A program made the position numbers and the translations under genes. Of a stretch of DNA of 64,000 nt, positions 44,102 through 45,177 are shown one piece after another. Numbering within the stretch: position 1 is the stretch's first letter; each line of letters starts with the position of its first letter. Origin of the DNA: Truepera sp. (lineage in GTDB: Bacteria; Deinococcota; Deinococci; Deinococcales; Trueperaceae); the NCBI GenBank assembly GCA_965218435.1, contig CBDCKW010000009.1, forward strand, positions 3,744,001 through 3,808,000, written 5' to 3'. Below the pieces are notes generated by a model. The model worked only from the letters and a program-made list of their open reading frames with translations, made no database searches and had not been told where the DNA came from.

Positions 44102-44131
44102 AAAAAACAACCCGGAGCCTTATGCTCCGGG
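44102..44131 (-). terminator. Rho-independent terminator
   Basis: Minus strand CCCGGAGC-ATAAG-GCTCCGGG-TTGTTTTTT. Confidence 0.85.
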
Positions 44132-44261
44132 CTGGGTACCCATCCGGTTCTGAGGATAACTGATGCCACGCCTCAAAACGGAACTATGGTCAGTTACCCT
44201 AGACGGGTACCTCCACTGGTCTGTTTCTTTTGTAAAATTAGGACCACCTCCTTTCTGTGGT
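44102..44261 (-). ncRNA. Candidate structured small RNA (~160 nt) with a 16S-3'-tail-complementary 5' end
   Basis: -10 TACAAT at 44273-44268; 5' hairpin ACCAC-AGAAAGGAG-GTGGT; two stacked 11-bp helices with G-U pairs (44135-44211); intrinsic terminator at 44102-44131. Confidence 0.6.
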
Positions 44262-44544
44262 AAAAAGATTGTACAGCAAAAAAGTCCGGGGGATGTGTTA
44301 TTCATTACGTTTTGGTGGTGAGGTCGGTTTAGGTTTACAAAAGGCTCGAGCTATCCCGTCTCGGACGGAAGTTCTCCGGTAGAGGTCGCTCTGATTGTAC
44401 CTAGGTATATTCCGTAAATCTATGTATAAAAGCCGTAGATAAAGGCTGTGCTGAAGCTCAGCCCTAATCAGCCTGCAACCGGCGCGGCTGTCGGGTAAGG
44501 CTCGAGGACATCTGCCCCGGTTCGTGCGCTCTATACTTTTGTCA

Positions 44545-45177
44545 GTGAAGCTTTCTGTCCGTCAACTCTGGACGCTCGTCGTCGTTGGACTAGCCGCGGC
44601 CGCTCTAGCAGGGTTTGCTTATGTCCAGTTACGAAACGTGCAGTTGCAACGCGTGGGTACGCCGCAAGACCAGCTCGAGTATTACGGCACGCCGCTCGAC
44701 ACGCCCGTTCAGGTTGCGCCGTTTACCCTGACCGACGCCAAAGGCAAACGGGTGACGCTTGCCAAGTGGCGTGGTGACCTCGTGCTGGTCTTTTTCGGTT
44801 TTACTCGCTGCCCCGACGTGTGCCCCCTGACGCTCGGGCGGTTGGCTAAAGTTTACGAAGATTTAGGCCAGCCCAGGGACTTGCAGGTTGTGATGGTCAC
44901 CGTTGACCCACAGCACGACACGCCGAAGCTGACCCAAAAGTATGCCGCTGGTTTTAACCCCTATTTCGTGGGTTTGGCTGGCAGCAGCAGCGACATCGCC
45001 AAGGCTGCAAAGACCTTTTTTGTCGGCTACCGTGGGTTAAAGAGCAAGGACTTCATCCATACCGATTCAGTGGCGCTCTTAGACCGTGAGGGCAAGATGC
45101 GGTTTGTTTACGGTCAAGATAAGGTCGCGCGGCTCGGTGAAGATTTGCCTAAGCTGCTCGCCTCGAGCGAGTTTTAG
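44545..45177 (+). CDS. SCO1/SenC-family copper chaperone
   Basis: N-terminal TM, FFGFTRCPDVCP, VDPQHDT, conserved His (FIHT). Start GTG 44545 after TATACT. Confidence 0.92.
   Translation: MKLSVRQLWTLVVVGLAAAALAGFAYVQLRNVQLQRVGTPQDQLEYYGTPLDTPVQVAPFTLTDAKGKRVTLAKWRGDLVLVFFGFTRCPDVCPLTLGRLAKVYEDLGQPRDLQVVMVTVDPQHDTPKLTQKYAAGFNPYFVGLAGSSSDIAKAAKTFFVGYRGLKSKDFIHTDSVALLDREGKMRFVYGQDKVARLGEDLPKLLASSEF

Follow-up and report, generated by a model that had tools for sequence, protein, structure and literature searches.

The 64,000-nt stretch of the Truepera sp. genome analysed here, hereafter called the window (contig CBDCKW010000009.1, positions 3,744,001 to 3,808,000), carries on the minus strand of its positions 44102-44273 a compact unit in which a −10 promoter box, a complement of the 3′ tail of the 16S rRNA, a mini open reading frame (mini-ORF) with an AUU start, a long helix and an intrinsic terminator follow one another in series. 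The unit is flanked upstream by a divergent SCO1/SenC gene on the plus strand (44524-45177) and downstream by a gene of the Amino_oxidase family on the minus strand (42617 to about 44000), which probably encodes a protoporphyrinogen oxidase. An original prediction, made from the letters of this stretch alone, had described the unit as a self-contained RNA that either binds the 30S subunit or sequesters the anti-Shine-Dalgarno sequence, or else as the mRNA of a micro-peptide with a non-canonical start. Every element that it listed was found at its minus-strand coordinates, and its interpretation was largely right: the locus is probably a free-standing gene for an RNA of about 160 nt, and the data presented below suggest that this RNA is a mini-mRNA that docks on the ribosome. 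Coordinates of the features of the unit refer to the minus strand throughout.

The 5′ region of the unit reads ACCAC-AGAAAGGAG-GTGGT-CC and includes the 16-mer AGAAAGGAGGTGGTCC at 44256-44241. The only 16S gene detected in the genome has the 3′ end ...GGATCACCTCCTTTCT, and when this end was compared with the corresponding segment of the RNA, AGAAAGGAGGUGGUCC (44241-44256), which constitutes an extended Shine-Dalgarno (SD) sequence, all 16 positions were able to pair, 15 of them as Watson-Crick pairs and one as G-U. The predicted 15/16 match to the 16S 3′ end, with a G-U pair as the only difference, is thus borne out by the 16S gene of the same genome. To put this figure in context, every position on both strands of the 4.8-Mb genome (9.6 million positions) was scored against the 16S tail. 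Only two positions paired at 16/16, the present site and the antisense strand of the 16S gene, and the runners-up were five sites with 15/16 pairs, of which at most 13 were Watson-Crick. Therefore, the match is far from what chance would produce, and it represents the most complete SD sequence in the genome. Inspection by eye of the alignments described below revealed that the variants found in the purine run are all A-to-G or G-to-A, in such a way that A-U or G-U pairing with the tail is kept. Between the end of the complement (44241) and the first base of the mini-ORF start codon (44238) lie two unpaired bases, UA.

The homologues that the original prediction had proposed to look for were found by several searches. 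A BLASTN search with a 196-nt query was run against 61 related genomes, 37 from the family of the window and 24 from the four other families of the order. Within the family, 30 genomes, counting that of the window, gave a match to the locus at E ≤ 3.2e-5, whereas the 24 genomes from outside the family gave none at this level, their best E value being 0.009. Of the seven family genomes with no strong match, five are fragmented assemblies of 140-620 contigs, one of them 67% complete, and the remaining two (G029 and G035) consist of 2 and 30 contigs, respectively. A pattern scan of 185,579 species genomes returned at least 108 stretches, and the matches listed belonged mostly to Trueperaceae, Truepera or Deinococcales. 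A covariance model, R1, was built from 65 distinct Deinococcota copies, with no actinobacterial sequence among them. Of the first 100 loci of the scan, 76 were recognised by R1 as true members at E ≤ 8.4e-10, whereas 24 did not reach E ≤ 0.001 and appear to be fortuitous matches within GC-rich coding DNA. The scan loci L132-L139 lay outside this test, and four of them are part of the alignment of the model.

The model was also used for a survey of the phylum, based on an even sample of 151 genomes. Exactly one copy was detected in the genome of the window and in each of the 12 other genomes of its family, whereas in a second family the unit was present in 4 of 82 genomes, distributed as 0/77 in the largest genus and 2/2, 1/1 and 1/1 in three small genera, and in a third family it was detected in none of the eight genomes sampled. 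In a fourth family a single match among 48 genomes (L157, Thermus-type, E 0.006) was judged to be due to chance, as both the 5′ block and the second motif are absent from it; it sits in what appears, as read without translation, to be coding sequence. By these sequence criteria the unit is conserved as a single copy in Trueperaceae and in a few other Deinococcales.

Two groups of copies deserve separate mention. A copy from a metagenome-assembled genome labelled as an uncultured Actinomycetes bacterium (L085/L161) passes R1 and is of the Truepera type (GUGGAGGUACCCGCC, UUG start, ending in GGTRR*), while the Rfam model of the actinobacterial family Ms_IGR-5, considered below, gives it only 18.4 bits; it could reflect horizontal transfer, a mis-binned contig or a bridging lineage. 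On the other hand, eight loci from metagenome-assembled genomes of Deinococcales (L033, L046, L047, L071, L074, L106, L123 and L131) form a divergent subgroup with CUG at the start position, a longer 3′ domain (about 170-190 nt from the 5′ end to the 3′ arm of helix P2, described below) and CCAGC/GUUGG in place of GGUC/GACC.

The frame that follows the complement starts with AUU at 44238-44236, comprises 14 sense codons (ILQKKQTSGGTRLG) and ends with the UAA codon at 44196-44194. Its conservation was tested on a pool of 110 sequences (76 scan loci, 27 from the first alignment, three from the family and four from the second family), which reduced to 89 distinct copies. All 89 have a near-cognate start, one step away from AUG, located 7-10 nt after GGAGG, the codon being AUU in 38 copies, AUC in 19, AUA in 18, CUG in 11 and UUG in three; neither AUG nor GUG occupies this position in any of the 89 distinct Deinococcota copies. 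No internal stop was found in this frame in any of them, whereas the other two frames were interrupted in 65 and 51 copies. The stop codon, UAA in 64, UAG in 23 and UGA in two, falls at the same aligned codon in 88 copies and one codon earlier in the remaining one, and the length of the frame ranges from 12 to 15 codons. Moreover, the distance from the start to the invariant block GUGGAGGU takes only the values 16, 19, 22 or 25 nt, whereas the spacing from the SD to the start takes the values 7, 8, 9 and 10, so insertions and deletions come in threes on the 3′ side of the start but not on its 5′ side. A pattern of this kind would be very hard to explain without translation, and the comparative data strongly support the proposal of a micro-peptide mRNA with a non-canonical start, the ATT frame being kept in 89/89.

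These same data bear on two other explanations. The original prediction had itself named the possibility that the real product is the 61-residue ORF at 44120-44305, to which a small ORF of the plus strand running over the locus may be added, and such ORFs do exist in the window. However, the start of the 61-residue ORF precedes the conserved −10 box, stops in the frame of this ORF (+2 with respect to the mini-ORF) occur within the span of the mini-ORF in 51 of the 89 homologues, and neither this ORF nor three other small ORFs gave any Pfam match at E ≤ 0.1, for which we regard this possibility as negligible. A non-coding sponge that sequesters the anti-SD sequence or the 30S subunit, with an open frame that is incidental, would be in good agreement with a 16-nt pairing to the 16S tail that is unique in the genome. 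However, an incidental frame would not produce indels in threes, a start close to AUG, the absence of internal stops and changes only from stop to stop in 89/89, and it is unlikely that one RNA species could titrate the ribosomes, which are far more abundant. A sponge thus appears very unlikely, and translation of the mini-ORF remains the preferred explanation of its conservation.

The structure of the RNA was then considered. The 171-nt stretch folds at −67.8 kcal/mol, compared with −47.4 ± 4.2 kcal/mol for 200 shuffled sequences (z = −4.9). The alignment of the 65 sequences supports four consensus helices, P1a (CCAC/GUGG), P1b (GGUC/GACC), P2 (GGURCCCGYC/GGCGGGYA(N)CC) and P3 (GAGGG/CCCUC), which leave 92.3% of the cells paired, compared with 37-52% when one strand is slid by 1-3 columns. 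In P1a, the 5′ strand CCAC (44257-44260), invariant in 65/65, pairs with GUGG at 44216-44213, inside the mini-ORF. In P1b, the 5′ strand GGUC (44242-44245) belongs to the 16S complement as well, and its partner is GACC (44221-44218), again inside the mini-ORF; 95.4% of the cells of this helix are paired, with one G-C to A-U double change in two sequences, and its pairing leaves the purine-rich SD as a bulge. Helix P2 is formed by the arms GGUACCCGUCU (44201-44211), also within the mini-ORF, and GGAUGGGUACC (44135-44145), and 91.2% of its cells are paired in the 65 sequences, the pair 62:163 being A-U in 25, G-C in 21 and G-U in 14. In the genus of the window P3 is an 11-bp helix, whose 5′ strand (44190-44200) holds the stop codon and whose 3′ strand is UCAGUUAUCCU (44153-44163), whereas family-wide only GAGGG/CCCUC is conserved, with 85.6% of cells paired. 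Between the 3′ strands of P3 and P2 there is an internal loop, CAGAACC (44146-44152), which is semi-conserved (R1 consensus A-a-u-u-C-c-A).

The rod described in the original prediction corresponds to P2 and to the extended form of P3. At the DNA level its arms are GGTACCCGTCT (44211-44201) with GGATGGGTACC (44145-44135), and AGGGTAACTGA (44200-44190) with TCAGTTATCCT (44163-44153), so that both 11-bp helices, with G-U as their only non-Watson-Crick pairs, and the 7-nt bulge are where they had been placed. However, the inner helix is peculiar to the genus of the window, and in the other genera a variable, branched insert is enclosed by the only two elements that are kept, GAGGG/CCCUC (P3) and the outer helix (P2). 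A second correction concerns the hairpin ACCAC/GUGGU proposed for the 5′ end, which is present and invariant, and for this reason beyond covariation testing, whereas the alternative represented by P1a and P1b fits a few variants better: in the few copies with GAUC, P1b is preserved by a compensating A-U pair, whereas the hairpin acquires a C-A mismatch. Finally, stretches of the 3′ domain that contain CCUC compete for both GGAGG motifs, and thus alternative folds are likely.

The relationship between the fold and the mini-ORF is informative about what is under selection. The first 5-8 residues of the encoded peptide vary freely, both in sequence and in number, whereas the C-terminal endings fall into a few types, namely TSGGARRG in 28 of the 89 copies, TSGGTRRG in 18, VGGGARRG in nine and others in the rest. 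In the alignments, the nucleotides of the last eight codons hardly vary, even at third codon positions, and this block makes up one side of each helix, the 3′ side of P1 and the 5′ side of P2 and of P3. The block also contains an internal SD-like GGAGGU (44209-44214), part of GUGGAGGU and invariant in 65/65 sequences, which, as read from the sequence, precedes the last sense codon by 10 nt. One could argue from the frame kept in 89/89 and from the well-conserved C-terminus that the 14-residue peptide is the functional product, and that the extended SD, the weak start and the fold merely tune its amount. However, the N-terminal part is free to change, and the C-terminal codons are invariant at synonymous positions and coincide with strands of P1, P2 and P3, so that RNA constraints alone would explain their conservation. 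We consider a functional peptide unlikely, and selection most likely keeps the engagement of the ribosome and the RNA fold rather than the peptide.

Regarding the limits of the transcription unit, the −10 box TACAAT was found at 44273-44268, as claimed. A TANNNT box is located 4-9 nt 5′ of ACC (6 nt in 75 cases) in all 88 members with at least 40 nt of upstream sequence, although a general promoter scan did not list the box at 44273-44268, because a good −35 hexamer is absent. The fixed distance to this conserved box places the predicted transcription start at the (U)ACCAC sequence (44261-44262). At the other end, a terminator scan corroborated the clean intrinsic terminator that had been proposed (44102-44134), with an 11-bp GC-rich stem and a 5-nt loop (hairpin at 44134-44108) followed by a T run, and 71 of 87 homologues had, by a crude test, a hairpin plus T run 3′ of the unit.

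The unit lies upstream of the Amino_oxidase-family gene and on the same strand, and its terminator is about 100 nt short of the likely start of this gene, an arrangement that could suggest a cis-acting leader, in which a leader peptide and an attenuator would control the protoporphyrinogen-oxidase-like gene. When the flanks of 30 loci (L001-L030) were annotated with Pfam, however, a gene of this family was found downstream at only four of them, all from the genus of the window (L001-L004), whereas the others had a convergent BioY gene or genes for a GGDEF protein, a methyltransferase, a thioesterase and others, often in convergent orientation. No neighbour, upstream or downstream, was constant across these 30 loci and the actinobacterial relatives, which also have varied neighbours, and an alternative anti-terminator pairing was not found. 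A cis-acting role is contradicted by this lack of conservation of the downstream gene, which makes a leader extremely unlikely and favours a gene that stands on its own.

Some additional features were observed around the unit. At about 17 of the 30 loci (e.g. L008, L009, L012 and L013), from many genera of Trueperaceae, the upstream neighbour is a divergent gene for a large 4Fe-4S dicluster-domain protein (>460 residues inside the locus), whereas the genus of the window has SCO1/SenC instead. A weakly conserved box, GT(G/A)A-N6-8-(T)CACA(T), occupies the same place in 88 homologues (about 44300-44325 in the window); it is centred about 41 nt upstream of the putative transcription start, has low information content and resembles a CRP/FNR-type site in a class II position. 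Further upstream, at 44436-44490, a weak Rfam match to SorY (20.2 bits, cut-off 111, E 0.13) was driven by a terminator-like hairpin, GGGCUGAGCUUCAGCACAGCC, with a U-rich tail, and a second TACAAT is located at 44399-44394, for which another short transcript may exist upstream of the unit.

A search of the whole window against Rfam at gathering thresholds gave no match, and the original prediction did not recognise the RNA as tRNA, SRP RNA, tmRNA, RNase P RNA or 6S RNA. Nevertheless, it cannot be regarded as a novel RNA, given a weak sub-threshold match to the actinobacterial family Ms_IGR-5 (RF02471), the behaviour of R1 on that family and the existence of a published design of the same type, that of the rre genes. 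To compare both groups, Ms_IGR-5 loci were collected from three genomes reached through scan loci and, for the rest, from 151 sampled actinobacterial genomes, of which 44 matched the Rfam model at E ≤ 0.001 and 20 exceeded the cut-off. These tallies include four unpublished genomes, whose two loci (L179 and L189) were excluded from the later comparisons (L158-L190). R1, in spite of being built from Deinococcota sequences only, matched 30 of 30 Ms_IGR-5 loci over its full length and at the positions given by Rfam, 28 of them at E ≤ 0.001.

The features shared by both groups extend along the whole RNA, the equivalents of P1a and P1b being identified by eye. The Ms_IGR-5 RNAs share an equivalent of P1a (CACG(AG)/(CU)CGUG or CACA/UGUG, with the 5′ strand pairing with the middle of the frame), an equivalent of P1b (a GGUCC/GGAC(U) helix), the (G)GAAGGAGGUGGUCC block and the terminator, and carry GUGAGGUG where Deinococcota have GUGGAGGUG. 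P2 is perfect or near-perfect in 10-11 of the 18 examined, with compensatory changes and with CGAAUUCCA ahead, and the loop that precedes the 3′ arm of P2 recurs as CGAAUUCCA or UGAAUACCA, i.e. (C/U)GAAU(U/A)CCA. Both RNAs are present once per genome and have varied neighbours. Consequently, on structural grounds the Deinococcota RNA is to be placed with the Ms_IGR-5 family and is not a new kind of RNA, but rather the Deinococcota member of a kind that is known, although functionally unexplained.

A frame of 12-14 codons ending in ...TREVxxx* is carried behind the same extended SD by all 30 Ms_IGR-5 loci (a script found it in 17 distinct copies with the strict motif and in 11 of 12 others; one was located by eye and one was a duplicate). 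Its start codons are CUG, GUG, AUG and UUG, with an occasional AUU or AUA. The phase is shared with the Deinococcota frame up to the GUG of the motif, after which the extra G of the Deinococcota GUGGAGGUG shifts it, so that the same RNA block, GUG(G)AGGUG, is read as ...SGGARRG* in Deinococcota and as ...TREVxxx* in Ms_IGR-5. That one block gives unrelated peptide endings when read in different phases speaks further against a functional peptide, and no other observation points as strongly to the RNA block, and to its being read, as what matters. Ms_IGR-5 itself thus has the appearance of a mini-mRNA and not of a non-coding RNA. The family is expressed in Streptomyces (PMC8079986, PMC8780764), and significant ribosome-protected reads were reported for its homologues in M. 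abscessus and M. smegmatis (PMC4974804). A second Rfam family, CC2171, is a small RNA of Caulobacter whose expression was confirmed in Methylorubrum; GAAAGGAGGUGAUCC stands at the 5′ end of its consensus and a terminator at the 3′ end, and the consensus sequences of both Ms_IGR-5 and CC2171 open with the same anti-16S block. In the literature searched, from which most subscription journals were outside, no function or coding frame was given for Ms_IGR-5 or CC2171.

The published design referred to above is that of rreB from Bradyrhizobium, an mRNA of 165 nt in which 17 nt are complementary to the 3′ end of the 16S rRNA and a small ORF (sORF) of 14 codons begins with GUG (PMC5711450). This RNA is found mostly in the ribosome fraction, co-sediments with the 30S subunit and is weakly translated, and it is stabilised when its start codon is replaced by a stop (PMC5711450). 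Its analogues, among them rreR from Rhodobacterales, with 18 codons, are described there from four orders of alpha-proteobacteria only, their function being considered elusive (PMC5711450). CC2171 is, in our opinion, probably the Caulobacterales analogue mentioned in the same paper (PMC5711450). These observations also touch two of the alternatives discussed above. The presence of rreB in the ribosome fraction and its co-sedimentation with 30S would be consistent with a sponge, but overproduction of this ribosome-binding RNA left growth unchanged (PMC5711450). Likewise, conservation of the RreB and RreR peptides, each within its own clade, could be expected from functional peptides, but the synthetic peptides were unstructured in solution, and putative overproduction of RreB proceeded with no change in growth (PMC5711450).

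The above results suggest, with a probability that we put at roughly 0.7, that the locus is an rre-type ribosome-docking mini-mRNA, the Deinococcota example of the rre/Ms_IGR-5 type. According to this proposal, a sigma-70-type promoter would start the transcript one or two bases before ACCAC, and bases 6-21 of the RNA would pair with the entire single-stranded 3′ tail of the 16S rRNA, leading to very tight docking on the 30S subunit. From the weak AUU codon, eight bases after GGAGG, an initiating ribosome would read 14 codons, and during elongation P1 would have to be opened along its 3′ strands, and P2 and P3 along their 5′ strands. The ribosome would stop at the UAA located just inside the structured 3′ domain, with GGAGGU about 10 nt behind its P site; the geometry is such that, once the stop codon occupies the A site, this GGAGGU lies 10 nt upstream of the P-site codon, a distance that would allow renewed pairing with the anti-SD. 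The RNA would end at the intrinsic terminator. Binding to 30S, which the original prediction had also proposed, weak translation and ribosome-dependent decay are inferred by analogy with rreB. The RNA most likely acts at the ribosome, as a message that is tightly held and poorly translated.

What such a message might be for is speculative, and so is a link to initiation factor 3 (IF3). Its translation and turnover could report or buffer the state of initiation, meaning the availability of free 30S subunits and, given the AUH start (H being A, C or U), the stringency imposed by IF3. An AUU start underlies the autoregulation by IF3 of the E. coli infC gene, and IF3 discriminates against starts of this class. 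In the genome of the window, infC (contig C9, around 2,307,500; L191, minus strand 2000-2030) has an apparent AUA start, GGAGGUGACGUUU-AUA, 8 nt after GGAGG, and its first in-frame AUG comes four codons later and has no good SD. Thus, infC and the mini-ORF both have an AUH codon at normal spacing behind a good SD, with the difference that the product of infC is a full-length protein. Translation of the mini-frame may then track the activity of IF3, as a refinement specific to this lineage, since the actinobacterial relatives also use AUG and GUG. In a much broader proposal, the Deinococcota RNA, Ms_IGR-5 and rre/CC2171 would constitute one ancient cross-phylum class of ribosome-docking mini-mRNAs, in which complete pairing with the anti-SD would hold the 30S subunit and a weak start (in Deinococcota AUH or CUG, codons that IF3 rejects) would gate translation and so read out the stringency of initiation, setting the balance between SD-led and leaderless translation. 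The lineages concerned are rich in leaderless mRNAs, but we consider this generalisation distinctly unlikely.

Several observations weigh against the reading of the locus as an rre-type mini-mRNA. With respect to the RNA itself, folding of single sequences gave a mean unpaired probability of 0.54 for the SD, which exceeded 0.7 in 31 of the 89 copies and was below 0.3 in 23. Some of the covariation that had been proposed as a check on the prediction was found, but it is modest, with double changes in 5 of 23 pairs and much of the core invariant. RNAalifold, when applied to a MAFFT alignment with a poor middle part, preferred local invariant hairpins, ACCAC/GUGGU and another one in the 3′ part of the ORF, over P1 and P2. 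Kinship with the named families is not apparent from their own models either. A significant Rfam hit, on which the original prediction would have been given up, was absent at gathering thresholds, and the permissive search of a 701-nt region gave 19.8 bits for RF02471 Ms_IGR-5 (cut-off 45, E 0.027), a model with no match at E ≤ 10 when run over the whole genome, and 16.4 bits for RF01867 CC2171 (cut-off 75, E 0.41), in an alignment that covers only the SD block and the terminal helix. The AUG and GUG starts of the actinobacterial frames indicate that an IF3-sensitive start is not a class-wide property. As for the parallel with rreB and rreR, it rests on their published descriptions, and 30S binding and weak translation are features of rreB; in addition, the complement stops here 2 nt before the start codon, whereas in rreB/rreR it includes the first base of this codon. 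Finally, the lack of a growth phenotype on overexpression of rreB (PMC5711450) makes the role of a simple ribosome sink doubtful.

Nevertheless, the likeness to the rre genes extends over the whole unit. In both cases an independent transcript of about 160-165 nt, equipped with a promoter and a terminator of its own and predicted here from the sequence, carries 16-17 nt complementary to the whole single-stranded 3′ end of the 16S rRNA, and a short sORF follows right behind this extended SD from a non-AUG start, with 12-15 codons here and 14-18 in rre. The peptide is conserved only within each lineage, and the neighbouring genes are not conserved across lineages. The differences concern the start, which is AUU, AUA, AUC, CUG or UUG here and GUG in rreB/rreR, and the phylum, since rreB and rreR are alpha-proteobacterial and the present RNA belongs to Deinococcota. 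A search of a plasmid collection for the plasmid-borne rre gene of the Azospirillum type returned five short matches, all irrelevant, and in the literature searched, to which most subscription journals did not belong, no rre-type gene was reported outside the alpha-proteobacteria.

Three RNA families that have been named separately would thus be linked by this locus under one design, providing a comparative data set for a class to which no function has been assigned. Ms_IGR-5, a widespread actinobacterial 'sRNA' (small RNA), is structurally of a piece with the locus and would be a mini-mRNA as well. The Deinococcota members hold their start at near-cognate triplets, never AUG in 89 distinct copies, which leads to the hypothesis of a gate that depends on IF3 or on the 30S subunit. 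Experimental descriptions of small mRNAs that pair with the entire 16S tail are limited to rreB and rreR of alpha-proteobacteria, and the same design is now seen in Deinococcota.

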